From the IMG/VR virus record IMGVR_UViG_3300036785_000427, positions 1-52,490 of that record: 52,490 nt of DNA; one strand, 5' to 3'. Of the stretch, positions 1-41,706 are shown in pieces. The first letter of the stretch is position 1. The number at the start of each line of letters is the position of its first letter. The notes beneath the pieces are model-generated. The model did not search any database. It had not been told where the DNA came from and saw only the letters and a list, made by a program, of their open reading frames with translations. The position numbers and the translations under genes are program-made. This stretch comes from a virus. Its lineage: Duplodnaviria > Caudoviricetes.

Positions 1-1
1 G

Positions 2-100
2 GCAATGGTAGCTCTCAAGCGGATCGCCCTTAGAAACAGCACTCCCAACGCTGGGAAGTGGGCAGCACAGATGGCAATGGAGCTAGAAAAATGCATGTAA
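2..100 (+). CDS. C-terminal fragment of an upstream gene cut by window edge
   Basis: Frame 2 is open from the edge (AMVALKRIALRNSTPNAGKWAAQMAMELEKCM*) and its stop overlaps the next start. Confidence 0.5.
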   Translation, partial: AMVALKRIALRNSTPNAGKWAAQMAMELEKCM

Positions 101-786
101 TCATTCTAGCTGCCGGTAAAAGTAAACGGTTTCAGGAAGAAGGATATACGATTCCTAAGCCATGTTTAAATATAGAATGGCGTGGGAGAATAGCATGGAT
201 GGTATATCATGTATTTTTTACAATTCCAGTCGAGTTTAGTTCAATAACAATCGCAATTCCACCAGGAACTACAAATGATCCAAAAGATATACATTTTAGT
301 GTTTCAGATACCAAAGGTCCAGCAGAAACCGCTATGCAAGTCATTAATAAGGTAGAACCAGATTCTTGTTTAATATTAGATAGTGATATATTAAATTTCA
401 CAAATGATCTGCGTGTGCTCACTAATACTACTGACATTGGAGTATTAGTGAACTCCAGTGCTAATCCAGCTTTTTCTTATGTAGATAGCTTAAACAATTT
501 CACTAGTATCCGAGAAAAGCAGCGTATTTCACCTTATGCTGTTCGTGGAGCATATTTTGTTTCAAAAAAGGCAATGAAAAAATTCCGATTTGCTTTAGAA
601 AATGTAGTGAAAAGCCAGCGAGAGCCATTTATCAGTCATGCTATTGATTTGATGGATTGTACCAAGTACGCATTGGAAACTACATATGATCCTATAGACT
701 GGGGTACCCCGCGTGATATAAAACTAAGTGGAGCAAAAATCGTAACCGAAAAGGGGGAAGAAAATGTACGTGATCCACGCAGCTAA
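91..786 (+). CDS. Sugar-phosphate nucleotidyltransferase (NTP_transferase / GT-A fold)
   Basis: N-terminal VIILAAGKSKRF..GY..PKP motif, TKGPAETA, ILDSD, DWGTP; ATG at 91 with upstream GGAG. Confidence 0.85.
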   Translation: MHVIILAAGKSKRFQEEGYTIPKPCLNIEWRGRIAWMVYHVFFTIPVEFSSITIAIPPGTTNDPKDIHFSVSDTKGPAETAMQVINKVEPDSCLILDSDILNFTNDLRVLTNTTDIGVLVNSSANPAFSYVDSLNNFTSIREKQRISPYAVRGAYFVSKKAMKKFRFALENVVKSQREPFISHAIDLMDCTKYALETTYDPIDWGTPRDIKLSGAKIVTEKGEENVRDPRS

Positions 787-1780
787 TGTTCGAGACGCCC
801 TTCCCAAAGCATTACGATATATTCTACATACGGGAGAAAAAGAAAAGACCAGAAATGGTGATGCTTGGGTCTGTCAAATACCAGTCACCATCCGTTATGA
901 ATTTCCTAAACAACATGTCTTAATAAATCATATAAGAGACGCCAATCCATTCTTCCATTTAATGGAAGCCATGTGGATGCTTGCCGGTAGGGACGATGGG
1001 GAATTTCTTGATTTTTATGTCAAGGACTTCAGCAAGTTATATGGAAATTATGGTAGAATCATGGACGCATATGGCTATAGATGGAAATATGGTCTGGGCC
1101 ATGGTAATCAACTGACTGAGATTATTCAACAATTGCGGAGAACTCCCAATACCCGGCAAGCTGTTCTCCAAATGTGGGGAGCTGGTAGAGAAGATCTTTT
1201 TACAGAAACAGCAAAGCCATGTAATCTCGTCGTTACATTCCGTATCCAGAATAATGGATTACAGATGACTGTATTTAATAGATCAAATGATTTAATTTGG
1301 GGATGTTGTGGTGCAAATGCAGTGCATTTTCCAATTATGCAGGAATATGTGGCAAGTATGCTTGGAATAGGAGTAGGAGTGTATTGGCAGATTTCAACTA
1401 ATCTGCATCTCTATATAGATCATCTAAGCATGCTGCAAAAGCGCATCCGACCAAGTGAAGATCTATATGTTGCTTTGAGAAACACATTTGACTATGAAGG
1501 AACACAATCTTTGATTGAATATCCTGAAACATTTGATGAAGAATTACAAGAAACTATGGCGTGGGTAGATAAGATACATGGTAATGGAGAGATCTATAGT
1601 GGAAATATTTCTAATTCGTTTCTTGGGCAAGTGGTTCTTCCGATGGCTCAAGCTCATTATCTATATAAGAAAAAGGAAATTGCGGGAGCTCTTGAAGTAA
1701 TGGAAAAAGTTATTGCAGAAGATTGGCGAAAAGCTGGAACAGAATGGATAAAAAGGAGATCGTATGATAAATCGCAATGA
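764..1780 (+). CDS. Thymidylate synthase family enzyme, probable dUMP hydroxymethylase
   Basis: TRNG, RDANPFFHLMEAMWMLAGR, AYGYRW, TRQAVLQMW, catalytic PCN, NRSNDLIWG..GAN (Asn = dUMP specificity), NLHLY; resembles YuA/M6-type enzymes. Confidence 0.85.
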   Translation: MYVIHAANVRDALPKALRYILHTGEKEKTRNGDAWVCQIPVTIRYEFPKQHVLINHIRDANPFFHLMEAMWMLAGRDDGEFLDFYVKDFSKLYGNYGRIMDAYGYRWKYGLGHGNQLTEIIQQLRRTPNTRQAVLQMWGAGREDLFTETAKPCNLVVTFRIQNNGLQMTVFNRSNDLIWGCCGANAVHFPIMQEYVASMLGIGVGVYWQISTNLHLYIDHLSMLQKRIRPSEDLYVALRNTFDYEGTQSLIEYPETFDEELQETMAWVDKIHGNGEIYSGNISNSFLGQVVLPMAQAHYLYKKKEIAGALEVMEKVIAEDWRKAGTEWIKRRSYDKSQ

Positions 1781-2282
1781 CATACACAGTTCACGATATC
1801 TAGCCGGTTGTGTCAAGCGATACTCGACTTGGCCTATGTTGAAAGAACAAACGGTCGGTCATCATTGCTGGCGCGTCGCTTGTATATTTATAGAAGTGTT
1901 TGGACTTCCTCGTGCAGAAGTACTCTATTATTGTCTACATCACGATAGTGGTGAACTATATGCGGGAGACATTCCATTTGGTGTTAAGAAATCCGTACCA
2001 GGACTGAAAGAGTCAATGGACAAGGCAGAATCCATCGGCCTAAAGCATCTCGAGATTAAACTTCCAGAACTAGCAAATGAAGAACTAATAAAAGTCAAAA
2101 TATGCGATCTTTTAGAAATGCATGAAACAGGAGAACACGAGTTGAACATGGGGAACAAATATGCGTTCCCAATAATACAGGATGCACTGCGGACAGCACA
2201 GCAGTTAGCGAAGGAATCATACATGTCAGACCATGTCAACGATTGGCTCAGCAAAAGAGGGAGTTCTATATATGTCCGCTAA
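1764..2282 (+). CDS. HD-domain 5'-deoxynucleotidase (YfbR-like)
   Basis: VKRY...QTVGHH, LHHDSGELYAGDIP, VKICDLLE motifs. Confidence 0.85.
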   Translation: MINRNDIHSSRYLAGCVKRYSTWPMLKEQTVGHHCWRVACIFIEVFGLPRAEVLYYCLHHDSGELYAGDIPFGVKKSVPGLKESMDKAESIGLKHLEIKLPELANEELIKVKICDLLEMHETGEHELNMGNKYAFPIIQDALRTAQQLAKESYMSDHVNDWLSKRGSSIYVR

Positions 2283-2730
2283 TGAAAAACAGGTGGGAGG
2301 AAAACACTATAAATCCGGATATGAGCATTGGGATCTCGCTATAGCTATTCCACTTGGTTATTTGGAAGGAACTACGACCAAATACATTTCCAGATGGCGC
2401 AAGAAAGGTGGTATGCAAGACTTAGAGAAGGCTCTACATTACTTGGACAAGTTGATAGAGGTTACGTTCTATAATGTTAACCGTGTGCTTGGACGATTAG
2501 AAATTAAGGTAGAAGTAAATCGATTCGCGCACATAAACAATCTATCAATTTTAGAAGAAGAATATATTTTCATGCTCTGTACTTACGAAACACGAATTGA
2601 TCTTGAAACTGCTAGACTTACACTTCTGGATATGATAGAAGGGGAAGAACTTAGGAGAAATAGCTTGATAAGACCAGAACCAAATTATCCAGGAACCCCT
2701 GAAGATGGAGGTCATCACGCCCAAGAATAG
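2272..2730 (+). CDS. DUF3310 family protein (T7 gp1.7-like nucleotide kinase)
   Basis: QVGGKHYK...GYLEG..KYISRWRKKGG..DLEKA.HYL; ATG 2272 follows GAGGGAG. Confidence 0.8.
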   Translation: MSANEKQVGGKHYKSGYEHWDLAIAIPLGYLEGTTTKYISRWRKKGGMQDLEKALHYLDKLIEVTFYNVNRVLGRLEIKVEVNRFAHINNLSILEEEYIFMLCTYETRIDLETARLTLLDMIEGEELRRNSLIRPEPNYPGTPEDGGHHAQE

Positions 2731-2759
2731 GGGGGTGGGTACAGCCCTAGCTGGCCATA

Positions 2760-2792
2760 TGTTAAGCGGCTTACGCAGGGTCCTGAGTGGCA
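2760..2792. repeat. 33-bp intergenic repeat, copy 1 (palindromic core TAAGC-G-GCTTA)
   Basis: TGTTAAGCGGCTTACGCA is identical to 9227-9244; the following 15 nt match at 11 positions. Confidence 0.85.
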
Positions 2793-2817
2793 GGGAACGA
2801 TCATCTAGGGTGCACAA

Positions 2818-4839
2818 ATGGTAGCGCGCAAACAGCCAGTTTTTGATCAATTCCTTCTGCCTTATCAGCACCTAGAAAGCAGTTGGAAACTGCCGGTTGA
2901 GCTGCCAGATCTCTCCCAAGAGACAGAAATCGCAATTGATACTGAAACTTTTGATCCTGGCTTAAAGGAAAATAAAGGACCTGGGTTTTTTAAATGTGAT
3001 AAGAATAATCCTCGTACAGGATATGTCTGCGGTATATCATGTGCATGGAGAGACAAGGCAATCTATATTCCACTATGGCATCACCATAAAGCTTATTTTG
3101 ATCGCAGTCTAGTACAACGATGGCTCAAGTCTTTAGCAGCACAAAATCACACCCGTTTTATATTCCATAACTTTCAGTATGACTGGGGATGGCTTCAAGC
3201 CATATTCGAAGTTCCACCACCAGCTTTGATAGATGATGTTCAGGCAATGTCATCTATGATAAATGAAAATCTTCCTTCATTTTCACTAGACAATCTTTGT
3301 AAGTGGAAAGGACTTCCTGGCAAAGATGAACGATTATTGAAAGAATATGCAGGTTCTTATAGAGTAAAAGAGAATGAAGTCAAATCGTTTATGTACGAAT
3401 ACCCGGCTGAATATGTTGGTCCTTACGCAGAACAAGATGCTATGAGTACACTGCAACTTGCTCATGTTATGCGTCCATTACTTACAGAAGAGAATTTGGA
3501 TGCTGCATATCAAACTGAACGAGACTTGATGCCAATAACTCTAAAAATGAAACAAAGAGGAATACGAGTAGATAAACGCAAAGCAGAAGGAGTGTCAGGC
3601 AGAATTAAAGAACAGCGTGATAACATGCTGTATGATCTTAGCAGTTCAACAGGAGAAAGAGTCACAATAAAAGATATAAGATCTAATCATTGGTTAAAAC
3701 ATCAATTTGATAAACGGGACTTAGTCTATCCTAAAACTTCACCAACTGAAAACTACTCGGAAGGTCAGGCAAGCTTTGAAAAAGGATTCATGGCAAATCA
3801 CCAACATTGGTTCCCCCGTACAGTGCATAAGATTAAAAGCTTAACAGATTTGGCTGACAGGTTCTTGGAAAAATTTATCTTAGATTATGCTCATAAGAGT
3901 AGAGTATTTCCTACAGTTAACCAATTTCGAAATGAAGGTGGAGGTGCACGTAGTCATAGATTCAGCTACAGTGATCCACCACTCCAACAAATGCCTAGCC
4001 GGGATGATGAAACCGCACCTCTTATTCGTTCATGCTTTTTACCAGAAGACGGTGAACTGTGGTGCAGCATCGATTATCAACAACAAGAATATAGGCTCAT
4101 TGTATTCGTAGCAGAGCTACTAAGAGCACGTGGAGCAAAACGTGCTGCTGATATGTATAGAAATGATCCTAAAACAGATTTCCATAACTATGTTATGAAC
4201 ATAACTAAGATACCGCGCAGACGCGCTAAGGACGTAAATTTTGCAAAGAGTTATGGAGCTGGAGTAGCGAAGTTTGCCTTAATGACTGGTATGAGTGAGG
4301 AAGAAGCTAAAAAGACTATAGATCAATATGATGAAGAATTGCCGTTTGTCCGTGAAGCATCTAGTCATTACGCTAGATATGCAGCTAAAAACGGGTACAT
4401 TAAACTGATAGATGGAGCACGAAACCACTTTAATCTTTGGGAACCAATGTATCGTGATTTTGCTAGAGAATGGGAATTTAAACATGCGAACAGAAACATA
4501 GACACACTGCCATGTTCTGAAGAAGAAGTAAACCGTCGTAAGGATGATCCTAAGCATCCTTGGTATGGGGAAAAGATGAAAAGAGCCTATACTCATAAAG
4601 CATTTAACAGAATGATCCAAGGGAGTGCAGCTCGACAGACAAAGAAAGCAATGGTAGAAATCTATAAAGCTGGATTCCAACCCATATTACAAGTCCATGA
4701 TGAACTATGCTTTAGCATTAAGAATAATGATGAAGCAAGAGCTTGTGCTAAGATAATGGAGGATTGTTGTCCTGTTATTACTCTGCCCATGTTAACAGAT
4801 ATTAAGATTGGACCAAATTGGGGTCAGTTGAAAAAATAA
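2818..4839 (+). CDS. Family A DNA polymerase with 3'-5' exonuclease domain
   Basis: Exo motifs IDTET, FHNFQYD, YAEQDA; pol motifs SIDYQQQEYR, RRRAKDVNFAKSYG, IQGSAA, QVHDEL. Confidence 0.96.
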   Translation: MVARKQPVFDQFLLPYQHLESSWKLPVELPDLSQETEIAIDTETFDPGLKENKGPGFFKCDKNNPRTGYVCGISCAWRDKAIYIPLWHHHKAYFDRSLVQRWLKSLAAQNHTRFIFHNFQYDWGWLQAIFEVPPPALIDDVQAMSSMINENLPSFSLDNLCKWKGLPGKDERLLKEYAGSYRVKENEVKSFMYEYPAEYVGPYAEQDAMSTLQLAHVMRPLLTEENLDAAYQTERDLMPITLKMKQRGIRVDKRKAEGVSGRIKEQRDNMLYDLSSSTGERVTIKDIRSNHWLKHQFDKRDLVYPKTSPTENYSEGQASFEKGFMANHQHWFPRTVHKIKSLTDLADRFLEKFILDYAHKSRVFPTVNQFRNEGGGARSHRFSYSDPPLQQMPSRDDETAPLIRSCFLPEDGELWCSIDYQQQEYRLIVFVAELLRARGAKRAADMYRNDPKTDFHNYVMNITKIPRRRAKDVNFAKSYGAGVAKFALMTGMSEEEAKKTIDQYDEELPFVREASSHYARYAAKNGYIKLIDGARNHFNLWEPMYRDFAREWEFKHANRNIDTLPCSEEEVNRRKDDPKHPWYGEKMKRAYTHKAFNRMIQGSAARQTKKAMVEIYKAGFQPILQVHDELCFSIKNNDEARACAKIMEDCCPVITLPMLTDIKIGPNWGQLKK

Positions 4840-4847
4840 TTTTCTTT

Positions 4848-4886
4848 CATGGGTTGCCTTCTTTCATTTGCCGTGTTATGTAAAAT
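4848..4886 (+). promoter_or_regulatory. Putative promoter (CATGG.TT ... GTG.TA motif, copy 1)
   Basis: TTGCCT-N17-TATGTA with extended TG; resembles 6444-6480 and 8312-8348. Confidence 0.55.
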
Positions 4887-4910
4887 ATTCAACAGAAGGG
4901 AGAAAATTCT

Positions 4911-5306
4911 ATGTCTACACCAGTTGTTCCTACCCCTGTTCCCGCTGGTGCGAAACCAGCAGCAGTGAAAAAGGAGCCCGCAGCTCCCAAGACTCCAAAG
5001 CCCAAGAAGGAAGGGGCCGTTGCACGTCCTCGTCTTCCCAAGTATCCTGATGAACACGTTATCACCGTGTTCAAGGAGAATGCGAAGGCGCGTGGAGCAG
5101 CAGATCGTTTCAAGCGGTATCACACCGGCATGACGGTTAAGCAGTATGTCGAAAAGATTACTGCAGATTTCCAGCGCACAGAAGGCCAGACTTTTGCTGA
5201 TATGCGTTGGGATGAAGACCACAAGTTCATCCACATTGGTCCCACGGTGGTTCCTGTCCCGGTGGCTTCACCCGCTCCTGCAACTCCGGCTCAGGCTTCT
5301 GCCTAA
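4911..5306 (+). CDS. Small basic Pro/Ala/Lys-rich protein, possible DNA-binding protein
   Basis: Strong RBS (AAGGGAG), own putative promoter and terminator, K/P/A-rich N-tail plus compact domain. Confidence 0.7.
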   Translation: MSTPVVPTPVPAGAKPAAVKKEPAAPKTPKPKKEGAVARPRLPKYPDEHVITVFKENAKARGAADRFKRYHTGMTVKQYVEKITADFQRTEGQTFADMRWDEDHKFIHIGPTVVPVPVASPAPATPAQASA

Positions 5307-5323
5307 GATACCAGGACTACTTT

Positions 5324-5352
5324 AGACCCCGCTTCGGCGGGGTCTCCTTTTA
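5324..5352 (+). terminator. Rho-independent terminator
   Basis: AGACCCCGC-TTCG-GCGGGGTCT 9-bp stem with UUCG loop followed by CCTTTTA. Confidence 0.8.
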
Positions 5353-5356
5353 TCTT

Positions 5357-6043
5357 ATGAATCTAATAGTTTTAGATACTGAAACATCTGATTTAGATCC
5401 AGACAAAGGAGCTAGTCTATTAGAACTGGCTTGGATCAAATTAGAACACAATGGTCAGTTATGGGAACAGATTTCTACGGCCGAAAATTATATCATATAT
5501 GATGGTCCTATTTCTCCACATGCTCAAGCTCTTCACCATATCCGTTCTGACATGCTTACTAAGGAAAAGGGAGCTATTTTTAGACACGAAGCAATTACAA
5601 ATCTAATCAATCACATAAGATCAGATACATTCATAGTTGCGCATAATTCCGCATTTGATTCAAAATTTATTCCAGAAATTACTGCACCATGGATCTGTAC
5701 TTTTAGAGCCGCAAAACACATCTGGCCCCATGCCCCCGGCTACTCTAATCAAGTTCTACGTTATTGGCTAAAAATTGATCCATGTGTGCAGGATAGATAC
5801 CCACATCAAGCTCTATACGATGTCACTACAACTGTCAGTATTCTGCTAAAAATGCTAGAGCAATATTCTCCAGAGCAATTATTGCACTTTTCTAGAACAC
5901 CGGTCCGATTAAAGAATATTGGATTTGGAAAACACCGGGGATCATCATTCGACCAGATTCCTCGTGACTATTTATTATGGTTACGATCACAAACTGGTTT
6001 GGATGAAGATCTTAGGCACACACTAGATTCTATCTTAAAATGA
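5357..6043 (+). CDS. DEDDh 3'-5' exonuclease (exodeoxyribonuclease X-like)
   Basis: VLDTETS, VAHNSAFD, WICT, HQALYDV; C-terminal FGKHRG..F..IP.DYL.WL module. Confidence 0.9.
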   Translation: MNLIVLDTETSDLDPDKGASLLELAWIKLEHNGQLWEQISTAENYIIYDGPISPHAQALHHIRSDMLTKEKGAIFRHEAITNLINHIRSDTFIVAHNSAFDSKFIPEITAPWICTFRAAKHIWPHAPGYSNQVLRYWLKIDPCVQDRYPHQALYDVTTTVSILLKMLEQYSPEQLLHFSRTPVRLKNIGFGKHRGSSFDQIPRDYLLWLRSQTGLDEDLRHTLDSILK

Positions 6044-6462
6044 AAGACGGTGGTTTAAGATCTATATTTCGAATTAAACTTGCAGGATACCAGTGGACAT
6101 CTGTAGAAACCGCTGGCACAATTAGCGGAGTCCCAGATTCAGAATTCTGCACTCCTCATGGAATTCAAGGTTGGGTTGAATTCAAGCAGACTAAAGTATT
6201 CTATGTAGAGATTAACCCGTTCCAGGTTGCATGGCTCATGCGCCGTTGCCGGATGGGTGGAAATGCTTGGATTGCTGTGCGACGCACGCCAACAGCTAAG
6301 AAATACGATGGAGCTGATGAACTGTGGTTGATGCGTGGTGATCAGGCTCAAGCTTTATTTGATAGTGGATTAAGAAATACCTCTGCATGGTGTTGGGATG
6401 GAGGGGAAAGCAACTGGAATTTTCAAGAGATTCATAATATATTGCATGGGTTGGCTTCTTAA
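6040..6462 (+). CDS. PD-(D/E)XK nuclease (VRR-NUC / Holliday junction resolvase-like)
   Basis: SGVPD...GWVEFK...PFQVAWL....GG.AWI. Confidence 0.8.
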   Translation: MKDGGLRSIFRIKLAGYQWTSVETAGTISGVPDSEFCTPHGIQGWVEFKQTKVFYVEINPFQVAWLMRRCRMGGNAWIAVRRTPTAKKYDGADELWLMRGDQAQALFDSGLRNTSAWCWDGGESNWNFQEIHNILHGLAS

Positions 6463-6480
6463 GCTAGACTGTGTTATATT
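6444..6480 (+). promoter_or_regulatory. Putative promoter (copy 2)
   Basis: TTGGCT-N18-TATATT with extended TG, upstream of AAGGAGG RBS. Confidence 0.55.
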
Positions 6481-6502
6481 TTACAGGTAAAAGGAGGATA
6501 AA

Positions 6503-6760
6503 ATGAATCCTAATGATCTAATGGAATTATTGTTCATTGCTGCCAATGCAAGAACAGAAGAAGAAAAAGCTCGCGTTGCATGGCGTACAAATGATTATAT
6601 ATGGACAAATACACCACACACATTTTCTATAGGATTTTGCAGAACCTTCAATAATCTTTGCCAGGATCAAAAATGGCCTTGGATTAACGATCTCTGGTCT
6701 AAAGAAGAAATAAAATTAATGAAAGAAGAAATGAAAAAGACATATGGATCCGCACTATAA
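6503..6760 (+). CDS. Hypothetical protein
   Basis: ORF with strong AAGGAGG RBS, overlapping the helicase start. Confidence 0.7.
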   Translation: MNPNDLMELLFIAANARTEEEKARVAWRTNDYIWTNTPHTFSIGFCRTFNNLCQDQKWPWINDLWSKEEIKLMKEEMKKTYGSAL

Positions 6761-8303
6761 GCACCAAGAAACTGCTGCAAAACTATTGTGGGACAATGAT
6801 GTCTTTGCTCTTATTATGGAACAAGGAACCGGTAAGTCACGGCCAGTGTTAGATGATTGGATGGCACGAACTTATAACTATCAGAAATATGGTGTTGATC
6901 CAGATCCAGCAAACAGAAACCTTGATGGATCAGATTATCACATAATGGATGCTATAGCAATGGATCTTGTTATCCTTGCTCCAAAAGGCTGTTATATGAA
7001 TTGGATAGGTACGGAAGAAGAACCTGGGGAACTCACCAAATGGATTCCGTCTGATAAGTTAAAGGATATTCATATTGGTGCATGGAGAAGTGGAGCTAAC
7101 AAGACACAACGGCAAGCCTTGAATAATTTGCTTCATGCTTATAGTCCACGGTTCTTAGCGATGAACGTAGAGGCCCTTAACCGGGATGGTGAGGCTCGGG
7201 AATATCTTCTTAAATTTATTGATGGACATAATGTTATAGGAGTTATTGATGAGTCCACAACAATCTGCCATGAGAATGCAGCACGGACTAAATTTATCTT
7301 AGATACATTATCAGAAAAATTCAGAGTTCGTCGCATTCTTACCGGATTGGTAGCACCGGAAAGTCCTATGGATCTTTATACTCAATACTGTTATTTAGAT
7401 TGGAGGATTATAGGGCAGAAATCATTCTGGGGATTTAAGAACCGATATGCGATTCTACAACAGATAGATTTCCGTCGTACTTCCCAGCGACTTGAAGATA
7501 GTGCAAATAAGAAGTTTTATAGGAGACCTTCTGTTGTAGTTGCCTATCGCAATATAGAAGAACTTAATCAGAAGATAATGAAATCTAGTTACAGGGTCCT
7601 TAAAGAGGATGTACTAGATCTCCTACCTAAGATCTATCAATTTTGGGATATTGATCTTACTGAAGAACAGGAACCTGTTTATAATCAGATGCGTGATGTT
7701 GCCATGGCTCAATTGGCCAGTGGTGACTTCACAACAGCAACTATGAAATTAGATCAGCTAGGAAAGCTTCAGCATATTCTATGTGGGCATGTCCGAAAAG
7801 AAACTGGTGAAATCGAAGATATTCCAGAAAATCGAACCGATGCTGTTGTGGAAATACTTCATAATCATGCTGGTAAGGCTATCATCTGGGCTCCTTATCC
7901 TCGTGCATTAAGAAAAATTCGGGACCGACTTCAAGATGAATTCGGTCCCGACAGTACGGTAGGCTTCTGGGGAGAAACTAAACTAGAAGAGCGCTTAGAG
8001 GCACGATCACGTATTCAGAATGATGATACTTGTAGATTCATTGTAAGTAACCAGAGTGTTGGTAAGTTCGGAAATACCTGGACCGCCTGTAATCTGGTCA
8101 TTTACTATGCGAACTCTTTCGATAACGAGGACAGACAACAGAGCGAAGATCGGGCACATAGAATTGGCCAGACTAGATCTGTAACATATATCGATCTTCG
8201 AGCTAAAGGAACAATTGATGAAAAATTAATTCAAACACTCCGAAAGAAGATAAATATCAGTTCTACTCTAGTAGGAGATGCGTTTAGATCCTGGTTAATA
8301 TAA
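6744..8303 (+). CDS. SNF2-family (SF2) helicase
   Basis: Walker A MEQGTGKS, VIDEST, LTG...ESP.DLY.Q, QSEDRAHRIGQ. Confidence 0.93.
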   Translation: MDPHYKHQETAAKLLWDNDVFALIMEQGTGKSRPVLDDWMARTYNYQKYGVDPDPANRNLDGSDYHIMDAIAMDLVILAPKGCYMNWIGTEEEPGELTKWIPSDKLKDIHIGAWRSGANKTQRQALNNLLHAYSPRFLAMNVEALNRDGEAREYLLKFIDGHNVIGVIDESTTICHENAARTKFILDTLSEKFRVRRILTGLVAPESPMDLYTQYCYLDWRIIGQKSFWGFKNRYAILQQIDFRRTSQRLEDSANKKFYRRPSVVVAYRNIEELNQKIMKSSYRVLKEDVLDLLPKIYQFWDIDLTEEQEPVYNQMRDVAMAQLASGDFTTATMKLDQLGKLQHILCGHVRKETGEIEDIPENRTDAVVEILHNHAGKAIIWAPYPRALRKIRDRLQDEFGPDSTVGFWGETKLEERLEARSRIQNDDTCRFIVSNQSVGKFGNTWTACNLVIYYANSFDNEDRQQSEDRAHRIGQTRSVTYIDLRAKGTIDEKLIQTLRKKINISSTLVGDAFRSWLI

Positions 8304-9054: not shown

Positions 9055-9400
9055 GTGTATCGGTGATTTGGAACCCTGAGCGACTGGAACCATGGGCGGT
9101 AGCATGTCAACCAGTATGGTAAGGACCACTCTCCTCGATGCATCTGGTGCGGATAGTTCCAGTAAGTCCTGGAACTATCCCTCCCATATGGCGTATTTTG
9201 GGGGGCACTTAGGTAGCGGCCCCCTCTGTTAAGCGGCTTACGCACGGTGCTTTGTGGCACTGAATTCCGTCCTACCGGGCATTTTGCCCCGGTTTGCCAT
9301 TGAAGGCGCGGGAACGACAGAATTTGGTGACTGATACGGAGGTTTCTGCACCCACAGAAACCTAGATCCAGATTGCATGTAAGATGGATTTAACAACCGG
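9055..9400. ncRNA. Candidate structured non-coding region at the convergence of the two arms
   Basis: Perfect 12-bp stem 9151-9180, perfect 9-bp stem 9340-9363, several shorter hairpins, possible long-range pairing 9057-9064/9330-9337. Confidence 0.35.
9227..9259. repeat. 33-bp intergenic repeat, copy 2
   Basis: Matches 2760-2792 (18 bp exact core). Confidence 0.85.
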
Positions 9401-9458: not shown

Positions 9459-11759
9459 CTATACATCTCTATCCAAATTTGCATCGATCCAATCCTGGAC
9501 CTGCTTCAACATCACATCAGCATCTGATTTTAACTCAGCCTCTTCACGATTAATCGGACCGTAATGCTGGCGTAGTTTCCGCAGCACAATCGCACAGGTC
9601 TCACAGGCAAATGCCGGTTGCTTCTTGCACATGTCCTGAAACTTTGCGCCATTGCCAGAACCATAGTTCTGCCAGTCCGAGCTAGAGCACGATACATCTT
9701 CGCTAAAGTAATCCATAAAACCTTGTGGATTGTCGGTCGAGGAAGCAGCAGAAAACGCATTGAACAGTTCATCGAATTTCGAGGAGCATGAGTGTGCATT
9801 GTATGAGGTCTGAAACAACCCAGCTTCGGCGGTATCAGAAGAGACATTGTCTGCTGATTGATCCCTGCCGCAGCAGTGCTGACCGGAACTTTCGCGCATC
9901 CCCAGACCCATCAACAGTGCCCACAGATGCCGAAGTGTGTCAGCCCCGTCTCTAGTATTGTCCATGTTTGCATCACGGTATTGCGTGTAATACCATTGGA
10001 GCACGTCCTTCTCAGAGTTACCTGAGTTCTTCTTAGCCATCTCGACCGCAGGTCCGTAACCCATCTGCCATTGCCGATACGTGTTGGCCCAAGCGAGAGC
10101 AAAGCCTTTGACATAACCATCTGGAGCTAAACCGCGATCACGCCAACTGTAGCCTGAAATCCTAGATTGGATCGCTATTTTAGCGATTACTTCCTGCTGC
10201 TGTGATGTCAGCGGAGCCGGTAATCCCGGCGGAATGTAGGGTGGCATATGAGTATCGAGTGCATTCCAAGTCTGCTCGCCTACGACACCATCAGCATCCA
10301 AACCACGCGAACGTTGATAGTCGTACACTGCTTCCTCTGTCAAGGAGCCAAAGTCGCCGTCCGCGGTAAGATTACAACCCTCCAACTCTATATTCAGATC
10401 GCTCTGTAATTCGACCACGTATGGCCCTTCGTCGCCAATACCGAGCACCGGTTTAGATCCTGATGTGGGAGGCTCTGTCGGAGGCCTGTCAGGCGGATTA
10501 ATCGGGGGGCGATCCGGCGGCTGCTCTGGTGGCGTGCCAATCGCCTGCCCAGAAACTGACTCGGCAATCGATTGGCAGATAGCATCAAAATTGTTGCGAT
10601 AAAGATCTGCATCCGCACTACTATCTACAAAACAGGTTTCAATTAAGATTGCTGGCTCATTGGTATTGTTGAGGAAAAACAGGTCAGTACGCTTCTTTGG
10701 ACCGCGGTCTAGAAAATGACCACTATCAGCAATAGCACTGGACACATCTGCTGCCAAAGTCTGCTGAGTAACATACAGACATTCAACACCCATCGGCTTG
10801 CTAGTGGTCTGGTAAGCATTGAAATGAACACTCACATCGAGATCACGTGTACGTGCATTGTGATAATTCACAATTGTATTGAGATTTGTGCTTTGGTCAT
10901 GTGAGGTGTTATCGTGAAATGTTTCAACACCAACGCCGATGTGCCGCAGCATTGCTGCAGTCTGCTCGACAACTCGCCGCGCCTCGTTTACTTCATCAAG
11001 ATAGCCGCTCGCTCCGCGGATATACTTGCCGTGACCACTGCTGATTACGATCTTCATGGGTGCTCCAATGCTCGACTGATAAGGCAAAACATCTTCCACA
11101 TTCACGTACTCCCCATATTCGGAGTAGGTGACACCTACGTTGCCAAGTCCGGCAACCTGCTCAGCCATCTTGTTGGCCCAGCTCCAACCAACTCCATGCC
11201 CGTCGAGATCAAATGCAACAAACCAGATCGGAAGGTTTGGCTTGTCGCAGTCCTTCCTGAGCAGATCCAGGAGCGCGACCGACTGCATGCCACGTTCGAC
11301 TATTATCCCAATCACGTTGGGGTGAGAGACGTAACGCAGCGCGTTGTTTAGTGACAGCAGCACCGGATTTTTGGCGATAATCAGGAACCCGCTGTTCTCC
11401 ACCTCCTCCATCACGTAGTCAAAATAGGCATCATAGCTGTCTGGATTGTCCAGCTCTATTATCGTATGCCCTTGCGCGCGCCGTAGTGCATACTGACGAT
11501 CCAGGTTCCGCCGCCAGCCCGCACCGCGCGGATCAATTCGACCCTCATTATACTGACCAGACACGTCGTCATCCGGCAGGTAGGGTTCGTAGATCGGACC
11601 GTCATCCTCGTAGTTCTCGTGGAACAGGTTGCAGTAGGCAATATTGTCTCCGCTCCCTACGCGCGGATCATCGTAAGGCACCTCGGTTATCCGAGCATCG
11701 TCGTCCGCAATGTCTTCGAGATCCGCGCCAATAAGGTAGCTGAGCGCTTTCTGTGGCAT
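9459..11759 (-). CDS. Multidomain endolysin: GH114-like domain + Amidase_3 + PG-binding + lysozyme-like domain
   Basis: IAYCNLF / IELDNPDSY (GH114-like, tentative); ISSGHG, SVHFNA, ILIET (Zn amidase); ADGDFGSLTEEAVYDYQRSRGLDADGVVG (PG_binding_1); RESSG...AGLFQTS (lysozyme-like). Confidence 0.88.
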   Translation of the reverse strand: MPQKALSYLIGADLEDIADDDARITEVPYDDPRVGSGDNIAYCNLFHENYEDDGPIYEPYLPDDDVSGQYNEGRIDPRGAGWRRNLDRQYALRRAQGHTIIELDNPDSYDAYFDYVMEEVENSGFLIIAKNPVLLSLNNALRYVSHPNVIGIIVERGMQSVALLDLLRKDCDKPNLPIWFVAFDLDGHGVGWSWANKMAEQVAGLGNVGVTYSEYGEYVNVEDVLPYQSSIGAPMKIVISSGHGKYIRGASGYLDEVNEARRVVEQTAAMLRHIGVGVETFHDNTSHDQSTNLNTIVNYHNARTRDLDVSVHFNAYQTTSKPMGVECLYVTQQTLAADVSSAIADSGHFLDRGPKKRTDLFFLNNTNEPAILIETCFVDSSADADLYRNNFDAICQSIAESVSGQAIGTPPEQPPDRPPINPPDRPPTEPPTSGSKPVLGIGDEGPYVVELQSDLNIELEGCNLTADGDFGSLTEEAVYDYQRSRGLDADGVVGEQTWNALDTHMPPYIPPGLPAPLTSQQQEVIAKIAIQSRISGYSWRDRGLAPDGYVKGFALAWANTYRQWQMGYGPAVEMAKKNSGNSEKDVLQWYYTQYRDANMDNTRDGADTLRHLWALLMGLGMRESSGQHCCGRDQSADNVSSDTAEAGLFQTSYNAHSCSSKFDELFNAFSAASSTDNPQGFMDYFSEDVSCSSSDWQNYGSGNGAKFQDMCKKQPAFACETCAIVLRKLRQHYGPINREEAELKSDADVMLKQVQDWIDANLDRDV

Positions 11760-25091: not shown

Positions 25092-26498
25092 TTACTGACT
25101 TTGTACAGGGTCATTATTTGGATTCTGTACAACACTAGAATCTTGCACAGCATTTGATGTAGTACTTGGATCATCTGTACCGCCACCACCACTCCCGGGT
25201 TGTGCAAGACATTCAAAATTACTACTCCAACCAACACCATCCGGATTACGAAAATCACCAATGTGAAGAACTCTATATATTATGAATGTACCACTAAAAG
25301 AAGTATTTGTCTTCTGTTCAGGAGCAGTAGCTCCTGGAATTATAGCATTAGGTGTGAGACCTATAAGAGTTGGAGGTAATGTCACAGCCATCCCACAATG
25401 TAAATCCCCACGTAGAACAGTCTTAATACTTATCATATTGATATCTATCCACGTTGGCTGCCCAATAAGATCTACAGGAGCAATTACTCCTGCTCCTATA
25501 GAAGATGTGTCATCCCATACGTTGATAGTATTCGTATGTGCACTAAATTGAACACCGTGGTAATTCTTAATGCCATTGATAGACTGACTTAGTTTATTGA
25601 TATAACCAGCATATTGCTGAAGATTTTGATACATTCCAGCATCTTGGTATGGAAGTTTCAATGCACTTGAAATATTGACATTTGAAGCACCACTTGGAAA
25701 AGCTTTAGATAATGTGTCTTGAATAGCTCCTGATAGTGAATTATTCGGCAGTAAATTATGAATAAGATTTAACGGTGCCTGTAATCCATCAATACCACCA
25801 CCGAACAATGAACTAGCTAATCCACCAGCAAAAGTTGTTGCAGATCCAATAGCACCACTCCCTAATTGTCCAATATCTCCTATATCTGTGGGTGATACTA
25901 CAGGAGTATCTAATCCAAGAGGTGCTACTGCTCCACGTGCATATGGTCTACGATCAATAGATCGAAACCCAGTTCTCCTAACATGCATTCGCTGGCCACC
26001 ACCTCCCCCATTACCACCACCTCCGCCTTCTCCACCACCTCCACCCCCTCCACCCCCTCCACCCCCTCCACCACCATTACCTCCTCCACCCTCATCACCA
26101 CTGGAACTTGCTCCTGCAGGAACAAATGTCATGCCTATTGACATTTCAGTCCCAATCCAATTCCCCCAAGCCTTGATAATTTGTGCCTGCATCAATAAAC
26201 CAGCTTTAGGAGCTTGAGCAGTAGCAATCGGTAATCCTGGTCTCATCCCTCCTGTTATTATGATTGGTAATCCTATCAAGTACCCTGTATCTTTAATTTG
26301 TTGAAAAGTTACCCCATGAATAGTTAAAGTAGAATCTGAACTAGGAAGATTTGGTCTTAATTCTTCTATCTGAAATTCAACTTGCTGTGCCCCAGGATCA
26401 TAATGACCATTAAATTCTGTACCCCATTGTGCACCTCCATCATATCGAGGAGGAAATGATCCTGGTGCTCCTGCTATTACAATAGAGTAATATCTCAC
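25092..26498 (-). CDS. Baseplate hub protein (gp27/gp44-like)
   Basis: MRYY.I.I, GGM..GLP.A, AWGNWIGTE, DLIGQPTW, V.HIGDFR.PDG..W. Confidence 0.7.
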   Translation of the reverse strand: MRYYSIVIAGAPGSFPPRYDGGAQWGTEFNGHYDPGAQQVEFQIEELRPNLPSSDSTLTIHGVTFQQIKDTGYLIGLPIIITGGMRPGLPIATAQAPKAGLLMQAQIIKAWGNWIGTEMSIGMTFVPAGASSSGDEGGGGNGGGGGGGGGGGGGGGEGGGGGNGGGGGQRMHVRRTGFRSIDRRPYARGAVAPLGLDTPVVSPTDIGDIGQLGSGAIGSATTFAGGLASSLFGGGIDGLQAPLNLIHNLLPNNSLSGAIQDTLSKAFPSGASNVNISSALKLPYQDAGMYQNLQQYAGYINKLSQSINGIKNYHGVQFSAHTNTINVWDDTSSIGAGVIAPVDLIGQPTWIDINMISIKTVLRGDLHCGMAVTLPPTLIGLTPNAIIPGATAPEQKTNTSFSGTFIIYRVLHIGDFRNPDGVGWSSNFECLAQPGSGGGGTDDPSTTSNAVQDSSVVQNPNNDPVQSQ

Positions 26499-29400
26499 GG
26501 GCCACCTTCAGAACCTACGGAGCTATCTCCACCATCTCCACCCCCACTATCTCCTCCTCCACCACCTCCTCCACCATCATCTCCCTTACCTCCCCCACCT
26601 CCACCATCTCCACCCTTGTCTCCTCCATCTCCACCCTTTTCCTTATCTCCTCTTACCTTAATTTCTGGTAGTTCGGTAATCCCGGTATCCCCTCTACCAC
26701 CACCACCACCACGATCTCCCCCTGGACCAGTACCAGCCCCTTGGGCTCCAAGTTTACCTCTACTATCTGAACCTTGATATTCAACTGGTTTCTCTTTCCC
26801 ATCACCATGGGATGCTTCTGACGGACGACTATCCTCTCTCATATTAACATCCTGGTCAGAATGATTTCTTACGTTGAATGGTATCTGATTTTGTTGATCT
26901 TGGTCTAAATAATGAATAGGCTCTTGTGCCTGCATATGCGGCGGAGTATCCGGAGGTGTAGGCTGATTCCCTCGTGATGGAGGCCCAGGAGGAACCTTCG
27001 TATCCGGAGGTGTAGGAAATCCTTGCGTTGTTCCTGGTATGGGAGGTCCCCACGGAACAACCCAGTCTGGTAGTTTTGCTGGAGGTACTCCAGGAATTAG
27101 TGGAGGCGGTTTACCAAGAGGAATATTAGGAGGTATGGGTACAAATGTCCATCCAGGTGGAAATGGTGAACCAGGAAACCCAGGAGGAGGTATACCAGGA
27201 GGAAGTCGAGGAGGAAAAGGACCAGTAGGAGGAGTAGTAGGGGGAGGAGCACCAGGAGTAGGTATTCCTAATTTTGCATTAGTCTGAGGGCCAGCTACTC
27301 CATCAACAGTTAATTTATTATCAGATTGATATTTCTTTAAGGCATCTTCTGTCTCTTTTCCAAAGTCTCCATCAACTTTAACAGGATATCCAGCCTTTTT
27401 TAATGCTTCCTGGAGTTTTTTGACGTCTTCACCCTTATCATTTTTCTTCAATGGTCTTTGTTTGGGTGTTTCTTTTCCTTCTCCAGGTTTACTACCTCCT
27501 TGACCTCCATTATATTGTTTTGTCTTTTGATTATATTTTTTCCTCCACCATTCTATAAATTGTTCATTTGTTATATTATCAACTCCTCCCATTTTAGCTA
27601 ATTCATCAGCAGGTATATTCTTATAGACAGTTGCCTTACCCCAAGCTTCATTAGATGGATACCCATGAGTCCCAGGTTCTGCTTCAGCTAGAGCAGTCCA
27701 AGCTGGTCTATTTGGCTCAGCCTTATGTTTAGCGTATCCAGCCATACCTCTCTGATGAACCATATACATGTCAAAGGCAGTTGGTTCTTGTCCAGTCTTT
27801 TCCTTATATTTTTCCATTTCTGCTTTTAGTTTTTTAGCTCCAATCTTCATATTTTCTCCAGGATCAAAAATATTCTTCCCTCCTAATTGTTGAAATTCTT
27901 TATCTGATAACTGTAACAACCCCTTATACTTTCCAGTTGAATCGTTTGGATTTCCTCCGCTTTCTATTCCAACAAATGTCCTCAACATTTCTTCACTGAG
28001 ACCAGACTCTTCTGCAGCGGCTTTAATAGCTCGATCAACTTCTGGTTTAAATTGAGAACTTCCTCCAGCAGGAGTAGAAGTAGGACCAGTTCCAGGTTTG
28101 TGAGTTCCTGCCGTTCGTGCAGGTTGCCCACCTCTCGGTAGATTCTTTTTGTCCCATCCAAACTCTTTAACAGGATCCTTAACTACTTGTTGCCAACCTT
28201 TAGTGCCTCTAATAGGTGGTCCACTCCAACGTTCAAAATGCAAATGTTCAACACCATTAGCCGTTCCACTTTTTCCTATTTGTTGACCACCCTTAACACG
28301 ATCACCAATATTTCCAATACGTTCAGACAGATGCATAAAGGTAGAATACGTACCATCATCATGCTTAATAGTAGTTATCTTCGTACCAAAATTATCTGAA
28401 CCAAAACTATCGATTGTACCATCTAATGGAGAATAAACAGGGCTCCCTTTTGGAGCCATAATATCAATACCTTGATGTTGCCCTGCTCCTCTACTACTAC
28501 CACTTCCTACACCTCCTCCTAATGACGTTCCAGTAATAGGATCATAAAGTACTGGTTTATTAGGATCAGCAGGAGGAGTAACAGGAGGAGTAACAGGAGG
28601 AGGCTGGCCTTCAGGAGTACCAGGAGGAGCTTCTCTTCCAGGCATAGGTGCCCGTCGTCCTGGTCTTGAACCAGGAATAGGGCTTGGAGTACCAGGAATT
28701 CTAGGTGGAGCAGGGACTGGAGGAGGAGCTGGACGACCACCGGGGACTGGTTGTCCTACTGTTTTTCCTGCTGCTACCATATCACGTTGAAGTGCAGTCA
28801 ATCCTCCAGGATAAGCACTATCGATTAAAGATCTTGCAGTTCCTCCTAAAAGCCCTGCTTTTTGATCTATCATTTGAGAAATCGTAGTTTTACCACTCAA
28901 GAGATCAGCCTTCTCTTGAGGTGTCATCTTATCAATATAACTTTGAGCTTGTGTTCTATATCGTTCTGGAAGTTTCTTTAATACAGAACTAAGTGCTTGA
29001 TCTGGAGTAACTGTAGAAACAGGTGGAGCAGGTGGAGCAGGTGGAGCAGGTGGAGCAGTAGGCCCTATCGGAACACGTCGTCCTGGCACAGTGCCAGGAA
29101 TCCTAGGAGCAGCAGAAGGCCTAGGAGTAAATGGCGGATATAAAGCTTTAAGTTCTTCACCTTTCAAATGAGTCAATTTTAAGCTGCTGAGAGCATTGTT
29201 TTGTGTTATCCATTTCTGTATTTCTGGTGGATAATCTTTCATCATTTGTTGATTAGTAATTGGATCCATAGTAGGAACAGGTTTTCCATTTACATCCTTA
29301 AAATAAAATGATGAATGAAATCCCAAGTCAGCAGCATCAGTAGTAAAGAGACGTTCTTTAGGGATAAATGATGTTGCAAAAGTACCAGCAGAATCAAGAT

Positions 29401-40725: not shown

Positions 40726-41706
40726 TTACTGGGATGCCAGAGTGCGGAAAGAAGCCACTCTCCGACCAGGACGACCCATCTGTTTAACAAAAGATTCTCT
40801 ACCGTAGAACACGATAGAACGAACACCAGTTGATGGGTCGATCTTCGTAACTGCACGCAACTCTCCTGCTTCCAGATCTACAGGATTAGAAGCTGCAGAA
40901 GCAGCGTCTGAATAGACTTGACTCTCAGCAATTGCAAAAGCCTCATCCGGCAATTGAGAGAATTTTACGTTCTTCCAAACTGTAGAATAGGACTTCAGCT
41001 TCGTAGCCAAACGGCGGCGATAATCGGCAAGGACCTCACCTTCCAGTGGCCGGGGAGCACGCTGCCCAAATCCGGAGAACACAGTATCCGCTCTTGCCTG
41101 TGCATCTGCAAAAGCAGCATGCTCTTCATCAGACTTCGGCTTCAACATGGATTCTAGACGCTTGATGACGGTTGCCTGATTTGCAATCTGACTCCTCAGA
41201 TCGGCAGCATCGGCCTTCATGACGGCATCATCCTTCTTTTTGTCATCGTCGTCGTCATCATCATCCTTGACCTTCTTAGGCGGAGGAAAAGCGTCGTCCT
41301 TTTTGTCATCATCATCGTCAGCTTTGGCCTTCTTAGGCGGAGGAAAAGCGTCAGATTTCTCCTTCCCGTGCTTGATTTCAAGCTCACCGTCGTCAGTTTT
41401 GGTTCCCTTCACCGGGGGCGGAGGCTCTGTTGCATCAGTTTTCGATGCTCTCTTAGCATCATCTTTGATCTTAGTCTTGGGAGCTGTGATACCATCACCT
41501 TTCTTGAGTCCCTTGTCATCGTCGTCGTCGTCGGACTTAGCCGACGAAACCTTGTCACTCCGATCCGACTTTTTATCGTCATCGTCGTCTCCTTTGATGA
41601 TGTGTTTCTCACCAACTTCAAGAGCATCCATCCGCTTGGTGAGAGCATCCATCTTTGAAATAGCGTCGGCCAGCATGGTATCGACGCTCACTGCATCTGC
41701 TGCCAT
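40726..41706 (-). CDS. Capsid scaffolding protein
   Basis: Asp/Lys-rich low-complexity centre with duplicated DAFPPPKK; RMDA; Q.RAD...G..AP.PL.GE. Confidence 0.7.
   Translation of the reverse strand: MAADAVSVDTMLADAISKMDALTKRMDALEVGEKHIIKGDDDDDKKSDRSDKVSSAKSDDDDDDKGLKKGDGITAPKTKIKDDAKRASKTDATEPPPPVKGTKTDDGELEIKHGKEKSDAFPPPKKAKADDDDDKKDDAFPPPKKVKDDDDDDDDKKKDDAVMKADAADLRSQIANQATVIKRLESMLKPKSDEEHAAFADAQARADTVFSGFGQRAPRPLEGEVLADYRRRLATKLKSYSTVWKNVKFSQLPDEAFAIAESQVYSDAASAASNPVDLEAGELRAVTKIDPSTGVRSIVFYGRESFVKQMGRPGRRVASFRTLASQ

Follow-up and report, generated by a model that had tools for sequence, protein, structure and literature searches.

A candidate glycosylated-thymidine DNA modification cluster at the left end of an uncultured contractile-tailed phage record

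Introduction

What might a phage do with a nucleotidyltransferase (NTase) and a thymidylate synthase (TS)-family enzyme that are encoded in overlapping genes directly ahead of its DNA polymerase? The question is raised by the left end of IMG/VR record IMGVR_UViG_3300036785_000427 (Duplodnaviria; Caudoviricetes), which is of the linear class, has an estimated completeness of 68% and was analysed over its entire length of 52,490 bases (the window). The original prediction, made from the sequence alone, was that this phage replaces thymidine by 5-hydroxymethyldeoxyuridine (hmdU) and adds to it a sugar made by its own pathway, in a chemistry resembling that of base J.

The comparative evidence supports this reading. 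The left end of the window is most likely the downstream half of a thymidine-hypermodification module of about ten genes, carried by an uncultured contractile-tailed phage, and gene content and conserved gene order make it rather probable that hmdU is made before replication and is then glycosylated on the DNA with a nucleoside diphosphate (NDP)-sugar of the phage's own making. The gene set is a variation on known phage DNA-hypermodification systems and not a separate class; a disguise of DNA by glycosylated thymidine has not yet been chemically shown in any phage.

Organization of the gene cluster

Four overlapping plus-strand genes had been described ahead of a family A polymerase, and all five open reading frames (ORFs) are present, with Pfam and PHROG families that agree. 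The left end of the window contains the following features.

2-100, plus strand: 3' end (32 codons and stop) of a gene for a predicted small-molecule kinase of APH/choline-kinase fold, cut at the record end
91-786, plus strand: predicted sugar-1-phosphate nucleotidyltransferase (NTase); the ORF opens at GTG 58 and the family Met is at 91
764-1780, plus strand: TS-family enzyme, predicted dUMP hydroxymethylase, with a C-terminal extension (Pfam, PHROG, residues, tree, blastp)
1764-2282, plus strand: HD-domain hydrolase of the YfbR-like 5'-deoxynucleotidase family (Pfam, PHROGs)
2233-2730, plus strand: DUF3310 protein, probable start 2272 (Pfam, PHROGs, ortholog alignment)
2818-4839, plus strand: family A DNA polymerase (PolA) with 3'-5' exonuclease, phiJL001/YuA type (Pfam)
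4911-5306, plus strand: conserved 131-aa protein with an Ala/Pro/Lys-rich N terminus, last gene of the co-directional unit
5324-5345, plus strand: terminator-like hairpin with a 9-bp stem (7 G-C pairs) followed by a T run

The genes are tightly packed, with overlaps of 23 nt (NTase/TS), 17 nt (TS/HD) and 50 nt (HD/DUF3310), the last shrinking to 11 nt if DUF3310 is read from the Met codon at 2272, conserved without exception in 10 of 10 orthologs. A gap of 87 nt separates DUF3310 from PolA, and the hairpin is the first terminator-like one on the plus strand downstream of the cluster. The NTase start proposed earlier, ATG 91, matches a near-invariant Met of its family and is overlapped by the kinase stop (98-100). 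The translation of bases 2-100 is identical to the C terminus of the kinase ORF in the closest relative (L003, with an NTase 97% identical). Since these bases encode the C terminus of a kinase gene, the cluster runs off the record at its left end. Megablast of positions 1-8000 against 50,697 phage records gave no match; nor did an exact 40-mer of the first bases among metagenome contigs, and the missing left flank was not recovered.

Relatives were collected from viral contigs in two rounds of scanning, the first with the NTase and the second with an alignment of 24 homologous sequences, which yielded 18 loci forming one clade, and the genes in these loci were mapped by blastp against a reference set. 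Several loci are near-duplicates, the distinct sequences numbering about 10 for the kinase and 14 for the NTase. The gene order in the clade is UvrD helicase, a small HAD-like protein (125-143 aa), HMUDK_hel, TAGT, TAGT, kinase, NTase, TS, HD, DUF3310, PolA, the 131-aa protein, exonuclease, p140 and SNF2. The kinase gene lies ahead of the NTase gene and overlaps it in all 18 loci. A TAGT gene (TAGT_b) directly precedes the kinase in each of the 15 loci that reach that far, and, among loci extending far enough, a second TAGT (TAGT_a) is found in 13 of 13, HMUDK_hel in 11 of 11, and the small HAD gene with the UvrD helicase in 9 of 9. In every relative the modification genes thus sit between the replication helicase and the polymerase.

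The thymidylate synthase homolog

The window has a single TS homolog, which matches Thymidylat_synt (PF00303; 4.6e-23, 82.2 bits against a cut-off of 24.3) and phrog_5131 (1.4e-89) and carries KPC, RSND and GAN motifs. It was aligned with three clade members and seven reference enzymes, namely E. coli ThyA, T4 gp42, RB69 gp48, SPO1 gp29 (annotated as a dUMP hydroxymethylase in its record), YuA gp17, a ViI-like enzyme and PhiJL001 gp24. Across these 11 sequences C146, R166 and S167 are invariant, and the window also keeps D169. The catalytic Cys (Cys146) is therefore present as described earlier, and the Asn noted in RSND...GAN aligns with E. coli N177. This position is Asn in the window, in 14 of 14 clade sequences and in the SPO1, YuA, PhiJL001 and ViI-like enzymes, and Asp in T4 gp42, RB69 gp48 and MilA, which agrees with the proposal that it separates dUMP from dCMP enzymes. 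According to PMC13326640, N177D marks use of dCMP, D169N marks 5-hydroxy-dCMP (5hodCMP) synthases, and the L143 position tracks methyl versus hydroxymethyl products. Because it has Asn at the first of these positions and Asp at the second, the homolog is of the uracil type and not a 5hodCMP synthase. A dCMP hydroxymethylase of the T4 gp42 type is ruled out by the Asn at the N177 position, and a 5hodCMP synthase of the RB69 gp48 type, with Asn169 and Asp177, by the combination of Asp169 and Asn177.

By blastp the homolog is closest to PhiJL001 gp24 (39.5% identity, 8.6e-80), followed by YuA gp17 (38%) and SPO1 gp29 (35.6%, 1e-36), with E. coli ThyA at 21%. It shares a C-terminal extension of about 100 residues with the SPO1, YuA and PhiJL001 enzymes and is without the W80/W83 region and the C terminus of ThyA. 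In a tree of 18 rows, the phylogeny that had been proposed as a check, the clade groups with the PhiJL001/YuA and SPO1/ViI-like enzymes and apart from the outgroups E. coli ThyA, T4 gp42 and RB69 gp48 (UFboot 94, SH-aLRT 91), the outgroup branches being long. Residues and relationships together suggest that it is a probable dUMP hydroxymethylase of a distinct subfamily.

Predicted sugar activation by the NTase and kinase

The NTase reaches only 18.2 bits (0.0031) with the Pfam family NTP_transf_3, below the 27-bit cut-off, which an ortholog passes (34.4 bits), and it matches phrog_3980 at 2.1e-18 over the first 245 of 495 profile positions. The 24-sequence profile finds sugar-1-phosphate nucleotidylyltransferases among solved structures (5z09, 2ggo, 4evw; 2e-6), and the structural model (pLDDT 90.9) matches 4evw, GlmU, RmlA and GalU with E-values of 6e-11 to 3e-9 and TM-scores of 0.64-0.72. 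LAAGxSxRF and PKP motifs are near-invariant in the family. The subfamily is rare, with 13 representative clusters at E<=1e-30 and 72 at <=1e-10 among 1.84 billion, and a tblastn search of the 50,697 phage records returned one weak match (7e-4) and no close homolog in a cultured phage. On its modelled fold the protein is predicted to be a sugar-1-phosphate nucleotidyltransferase, translationally coupled to the kinase.

Full-length orthologs of the kinase have an invariant Lys, HGDxxxxN and a Mg-binding Asp. As Foldseek gave no match at E<=1e-3 for a model built from the relatives (pLDDT 82.2), VIA-align was run on it. The best structural matches are without exception small-molecule kinases of the APH/choline-kinase fold, with Z-scores of 10.9 for APH and for choline/ethanolamine kinases, 9.5 for methylthioribose kinase and 8.3-9.0 for maltokinase, glucosamine kinase and N-acetylhexosamine 1-kinase; the modelled fold alone does not name the substrate. 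The kinase profile also matches RB69 gp52 (profile hidden Markov model 2.9e-6; hhalign probability 89.5% over 53 columns), and the NTase compares with RB69 gp53 at an hhalign probability of 34%. In RB69, as described in PMC13326640, gp52 supplies the kinase part of an AfhE-type enzyme and gp53 the NTase part, which makes NDP-arabinose.

Two further arrangements bear on the partnership of these proteins. A 630-aa protein in a distant relative (L006:5358-7250) combines NTP_transferase, HAD (Hydrolase_3) and APH domains in one chain. Its contig is giant-virus-like (P8 minor capsid and Pox_P4B core protein), and the fusion gene adjoins genes for multi-domain glycosyltransferases of 893 and 1510 aa. 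Within the clade, a transaldolase/fructose-6-phosphate aldolase gene (PF00923, 7.1e-35) lies between the kinase and NTase genes at L021:9285-10031; the near-identical L022 has the same kinase-NTase spacing, so that the insertion is shared by a sub-lineage, and it hints at a sugar drawn from a central-metabolism sugar phosphate. The NTase-first fusion of the AfhE type is absent from the clade, where the two genes are separate, overlap and have the kinase in the leading position in 18 of 18 loci; only distant relatives have fused forms (L006; lengths of 500-800 aa). Taken together, the gene overlap, the homology to gp52, the L006 fusion and the transaldolase insertion place the kinase and NTase in what is probably one soluble pathway. 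The earlier view that the NTase activates a sugar is thus strengthened by its fold, by its invariable coupling to an APH-fold kinase and by the three-domain fusion. L021 also has, between its helicase and HAD genes, a 217-aa ORF (4896-5549) that belongs to no Pfam family.

Genes upstream of the kinase in related phages

The transferase acting on DNA had been expected to lie to the left of the window. The kinase that was looked for upstream is present as its 3' end, and TAGT genes occupy the expected place in the relatives; the record itself contains none. In the relative L005, Pfam identifies HMUDK_hel (3.8e-31), both TAGTs (9.5e-15 and 5.4e-15) and, only weakly (0.063), the kinase as APH. Both TAGTs match phrog_842, beta-glucosyl-HMC-alpha-glucosyltransferase (8.5e-29 and 6.4e-38), a name taken from the T-even enzyme that adds a second glucose. 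Two relatives are complete or nearly so (G001, 77,961 bases, 100%; G002, 75,158 bases, 97%), and each has one TS homolog and exactly two TAGTs.

The route of M6-type phages, in which hmdU in DNA is phosphorylated by a P-loop kinase and then receives an amino acid, was rejected as a candidate. Neither the 5-hmdU DNA kinase (PF18748) nor the amino-acid:DNA transferase (PF18724) has a match in the window, G001 or G002, and YuA, as positive control, matches both; a protein search with YuA gp13 was also negative. Tet_JBP (PF12851) had no match in the window, G001 or G002 either, the control genomes being silent too.

The small HAD protein has the four HAD motifs and matches phrog_1238. Its profile finds nothing among solved structures at E<=1, its hhalign probability with RB69 gp51 is 20%, and direct comparisons with RB69 gp51 and SPO1 gp30.2 are weak. 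RB69 gp51 is described as an AfhF-like HAD-type phosphatase in PMC13326640, and it is plausible that the clade protein is likewise an AfhF-like sugar phosphatase. SPO1 gp30.2 (L030:30566-30970), which carries a DFDG motif, and RB69 gp51 (L031:27708-28094) are both named 'phosphoheptose isomerase' in their records, which is the phrog_1238 annotation; the name looks mistaken.

The shared backbone of nucleotide and replication genes

The genes downstream of TS are assigned by Pfam to a YfbR-like HD family (6.6e-08), DUF3310 (2.8e-06) and DNA_pol_A (2.1e-43, with a proofreading domain). Orthologs of the HD gene follow the TS gene in YuA (gp18) and PhiJL001 (gp25), DUF3310 corresponds to YuA gp20 and PhiJL001 gp26, and the clade profile of PolA finds YuA gp21 (3.4e-94) and PhiJL001 gp28 (1.2e-88). 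Among solved structures the HD profile has one match (0.073) and DUF3310 none. The HD hydrolase is a candidate remover of canonical dTMP/dTTP. DUF3310 was considered as an hmdUMP kinase like T7 gp1.7, a nucleotide kinase by its record, and was rejected: the hhalign probability is 3.4% over 26 columns (gp1.7 residues 150-175), and PHROG 'nucleotide kinase' profiles match over the DUF3310 part only. The 131-aa protein holds its place behind PolA in those relatives that continue beyond the polymerase gene, and it belongs to no Pfam or PHROG family; it may be a DNA-binding protein.

HMUDK_hel, TS, HD, DUF3310 and PolA thus form a backbone common to YuA, PhiJL001 and the relatives in the window clade. 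The genes upstream of TS differ: in YuA they encode the amino-acid:DNA transferase, a pyridoxal-phosphate enzyme, a radical S-adenosylmethionine enzyme and the P-loop kinase, in PhiJL001 one TAGT and Nmad5, and in the clade two TAGTs, the kinase, the NTase and the HAD protein. Since the backbone is constant and this cassette varies, the cassette probably decides which group is attached.

A possible modification pathway

In the pathway that these genes suggest, the TS homolog would convert dUMP to 5-hydroxymethyl-dUMP (hmdUMP), which would be phosphorylated to hmdUTP and incorporated by the phiJL001-type PolA, and the HD hydrolase may reduce the supply of canonical thymidine nucleotides. The APH-fold kinase and the NTase would make an NDP-sugar from a sugar or sugar phosphate, probably with the participation of the small HAD phosphatase, in a donor logic of kinase, phosphatase and pyrophosphorylase such as AfhE and AfhF provide for UDP-arabinose. 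The two TAGT proteins, predicted GT-A glycosyltransferases whose genes adjoin that of the HMUDK_hel protein, would attach a first sugar to hmdU in DNA through its hydroxymethyl group and probably go on to add another, perhaps onto that first sugar. The product would be a base-J-like hmdU bearing one or two sugars that would shield the DNA from host nucleases.

A fuller version can be put forward tentatively and is, as a whole, somewhat likelier to be wrong than right. It would make the modification a phage version of base J, in uncultured contractile-tailed phages and in simpler form in PhiJL001, with thymidine replaced by hmdU bearing one or two sugars; in the uncultured lineage the sugar would come from a phage-specific NDP-sugar and not from a UDP-hexose of the host, possibly an arabinose-type pentose, derived from a central-metabolism sugar phosphate by a split kinase/HAD phosphatase/pyrophosphorylase route, and the Cys-bearing HMUDK_hel would be a required partner of the TAGTs.

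Several observations weigh against the proposed pathway. Some concern the TS homolog. At the L143 position, three before the catalytic Cys, a non-hydrophobic and typically acidic residue would be looked for in a hydroxymethylase; it is Asp in SPO1 gp29, T4 gp42 and the YuA, PhiJL001 and ViI-like enzymes and Glu in RB69, but in the window it is Ala, and the 14 clade sequences vary between A, P, S, I, G, Q and D. Nor is the [FY]SDDG motif of four reference dUMP enzymes kept. With this acid and this motif lost, the product could differ; access of water is still conceivable, because most clade members have a small residue, not a bulky one, at the L143 position. No hmdUMP kinase was identified.

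On the side of the donor, the kinase has no significant sequence match in Pfam or the Protein Data Bank (PDB), where its profile matches only protein-kinase catalytic loops (E-values of 0.33-0.69), and its fold resembles choline/ethanolamine kinases (Z 10.1-10.9) no less than sugar kinases (Z 8.3-9.5). The links to RB69 gp53 and gp51 given above are weak. Neither an arabinose-5-phosphate isomerase (SIS) nor a dCMP deaminase was found in five relatives, two of them complete, a search that did not include the window. The hydroxymethylase gene of SPO1, whose DNA is not known to be glycosylated, is also followed by a small HAD gene, and for this reason the HAD protein may instead be a nucleotide phosphatase. 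Finally, the absence of TAGT (PF20691) from all 52,490 bases is expected, because the record is cut inside the cluster; the upstream genes proposed for this phage are accordingly taken from its relatives, the closest of which, L003, is itself cut inside the kinase gene.

Alternative explanations

The rival that survives best, although we think it unlikely, follows SP-15 and Carin-5. The APH-fold kinase, alone or with HMUDK_hel, would phosphorylate hmdU in DNA as a non-orthologous replacement of the P-loop kinase, a Cys-bearing HMUDK_hel would replace the phosphate with a linker, and further phospho- or glycosyl groups would come from the NTase and TAGTs. Its attraction lies in HMUDK_hel, which is a paralog of the amino-acid:DNA transferase: PF18724 matches PhiJL001 gp19, of the HMUDK_hel family, weakly (7.8e-4), and one Cys in an NCLCEF motif is invariant in six clade HMUDK_hel proteins, PhiJL001 gp19 and YuA gp14 and aligns with a Cys of the YuA transferase gp10. 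The comparison of this Cys covers the following coordinates.

L005:2158-3051 and orthologs: HMUDK_hel family
L026:5198-6064: HMUDK_hel family
L027:6305-7291 and 2462-3337

The 'helical domain' family may be an enzyme in its own right. The clade, moreover, is without the P-loop DNA kinase and does have another kinase. Thymidines that carry a linker of pentyl type, a phosphate and several sugars are described for Carin-5, YerA41 and SP-15 in PMC12686479. Against such a role stand the genes for kinase and NTase, which overlap in every one of the 18 loci, the remote homology of the kinase to that half of the RB69 AfhE-type enzyme which acts as a sugar-phosphate kinase, and the NTase-HAD-APH fusion of L006, which fits a soluble NDP-sugar pathway; in PhiJL001, too, neither kind of kinase lies near HMUDK_hel and TAGT. 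By gene order we take YuA gp14 to be the counterpart of M6 gp55. M6 gp55 was dispensable in vitro (PMC8989533).

Quite unlikely, in our view, is that the TS homolog forms ordinary dTMP or some other product while the kinase, NTase and glycosyltransferase genes serve a different target, such as host or virion glycans. The lack of an acidic residue at the L143 position (with Ile in one clade member) and the replaced [FY]SDDG motif speak for it, as does the L006 fusion, which lies beside capsid genes and large glycan glycosyltransferases on a giant-virus contig. About 65% of viral contigs with glycosyltransferases do not have them next to a base-modification enzyme, by a survey (bioRxiv 10.1101/2023.12.21.572611). 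The homolog, however, lacks the ThyA-specific W80/W83 region and C terminus and has the extension of the SPO1, YuA and PhiJL001 enzymes, with which it groups; TAGT and HMUDK_hel are DNA-modification families; and the genes sit between replication helicase and polymerase in every relative. The search for Tet_JBP, which matched nothing in the window and both complete relatives, is uninformative here, its control having been silent.

A third possibility, that the kinase and NTase act as a LicA/LicC-like pair activating choline, ethanolamine or a similar alcohol as a CDP-derivative while the TAGTs use host UDP-sugars, as PhiJL001 (which has a TAGT without kinase or NTase) presumably does, is very unlikely: LicA (Z 10.1) and other choline/ethanolamine kinases rank with the best structural matches of the kinase and one database source names an NTase homolog 'choline kinase' (others MobA), but every one of the top 50 structural matches listed for the NTase is a sugar-1-phosphate nucleotidylyltransferase, as are four of five from its profile against the PDB, the cluster has no candidate phospho-alcohol transferase, L021 and L022 carry a transaldolase/fructose-6-phosphate aldolase gene between the pair, and there is remote homology to the RB69 sugar pathway.

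Relationship to known modification systems

Glycosylation of hmdU with a sugar supplied by the phage would have a close logical parallel in the arabinosyl-5-hydroxycytosine pathway of RB69, DLP3 and HY126, which comprises a 5hodCMP synthase, the NTase-kinase AfhE, the HAD phosphatase AfhF and DNA arabinosyltransferases (PMC13326640). There, as in the clade, a TS-family enzyme makes the acceptor base as a mononucleotide, and genes for a kinase, an HAD phosphatase, an NDP-sugar pyrophosphorylase and several DNA glycosyltransferases all adjoin the polymerase. The differences are that the base here is of the uracil type, the kinase and NTase are separate and in the opposite order, the glycosyltransferases are TAGTs, the polymerase is of family A and not B, the arabinose-5-phosphate isomerase was not found in the relatives, and NTase and HAD show weak homology to gp53 and gp51. 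The logic of donor supply appears parallel to that of RB69 and HY126, with remote homology only.

The hmdU-based systems of M6/YuA, ViI, PaMx11 and phiW-14 use a P-loop 5-hmdU kinase and an amino-acid:DNA transferase (PMC8989533). The clade resembles YuA in the order HMUDK_hel, TS homolog, YfbR-like HD, DUF3310 and PolA; it differs in having two TAGTs, a kinase, an NTase and an HAD protein in place of the P-loop kinase and the transferase, and a tail module of contractile and not of siphovirus type.

PhiJL001 (Keylargovirus, infecting Alphaproteobacteria) has the closest TS homolog among cultured phages and the order HMUDK_hel (gp19), TAGT (gp22, annotated as a glucosyl transferase), TS (gp24), HD, DUF3310 and PolA (record AY576273, L026, 12271-19256), and its record thus places a glucosyl transferase beside an SPO1-like hydroxymethylase. 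Unlike the clade it has one TAGT rather than two, Nmad5 (gp23) where the clade has the kinase and NTase, and a dCMP deaminase, which was not found in five clade relatives; it has no P-loop hmdU kinase. As genes for sugar activation are missing from it, its donor is presumably a UDP-sugar of the host. By its gene content PhiJL001 is a cultured candidate for glycosylated hmdU; a report on the chemistry of its DNA was not found in the literature searched.

Glycosyltransferases associated with phage 5mYOX/TET enzymes also belong to the GT-A/TAGT family and transfer a sugar to a hydroxymethyl pyrimidine, 5-hydroxymethylcytosine, in DNA (PMC8256090); in the clade, by contrast, the acceptor would be made from dUMP by the TS homolog before replication. 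The glycosyltransferase survey counts GT-A matches next to ThyS, second glycosyltransferases and APH phosphotransferases as contig percentages and finds that phage GT-A enzymes resemble the base J glucosyltransferase (JGT) structurally (bioRxiv 10.1101/2023.12.21.572611). The predicted product would be an O-glycosylated 5-hydroxymethyluracil in DNA, as is base J of kinetoplastids, made by the thymidine hydroxylase JBP and by JGT. Base J, however, arises by oxidation of thymidine in DNA and is sparse and regulatory, whereas here hydroxymethyluracil would be made at the nucleotide level and replacement would probably be genome-wide and protective.

To our knowledge, characterized thymidine hypermodifications carry amino-acid-derived groups attached through a DNA kinase, and characterized phage DNA glycosylation concerns cytosine derivatives (5-hydroxymethylcytosine and 5-hydroxycytosine). 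If the reading given here is correct, it would add a third combination, a glycosylated thymidine produced by TS-homolog hmdU, DNA glycosyltransferases and a private NDP-sugar supply. In the literature searched, hmdU from a TS homolog together with DNA glycosyltransferases is known only as bulk gene-neighbourhood statistics and not as a defined base; no paper was found that defines this gene set, or a phage 5-hmdU to which a sugar is directly attached, and the supplementary tables of the survey may list clade members. The cluster would then offer new enzymes for labelling 5-hydroxymethyluracil in DNA, a new substrate class for studies of modification-dependent restriction and CRISPR evasion, and a test of function for the HMUDK_hel family, with PhiJL001 as the cultured phage in which the simplest form could be checked.

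Remaining features of the window

Downstream of the cluster lie further replication genes (RNase T-like exonuclease and SNF2 helicase) and lysis genes, followed by a minus-strand structural module of tail sheath, baseplate, portal and capsid genes that ends in a terminase gene cut by the right end of the record. The tail module is of the contractile type.

Within these regions a few proteins have unusual architectures. A 766-aa endolysin-like protein (9459-11759, minus strand) combines Amidase_3, PG_binding_1 and a 240-residue C-terminal phrog_33367 domain. Between the baseplate hub and tail genes, a 1795-aa virion-type protein (26495-31882, minus strand) has metallo-endopeptidase-, transglycosylase- and endolysin-type PHROG matches over residues 1126-1549. 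An ORF at 41755-42879 (minus strand) joins a NUDIX domain to a DUF2213/head-maturation-protease-like region and matches positions 1-293 of the 545-position profile phrog_6216, and the next ORF (40726-41706, minus strand) matches positions 336-544, so that a protein that is single in other phages may be split in the window.

Two exact copies of TGTTAAGCGGCTTACGCA, with 0.02 expected by chance, occur on the plus strand at 2760-2777, 41 nt ahead of the PolA start, and at 9227-9244, past the last plus-strand early gene. Each copy is preceded by a G-rich stretch. Of the loci compared, L003, the close relative, alone shares the motif, which may serve as a promoter or have some regulatory function.

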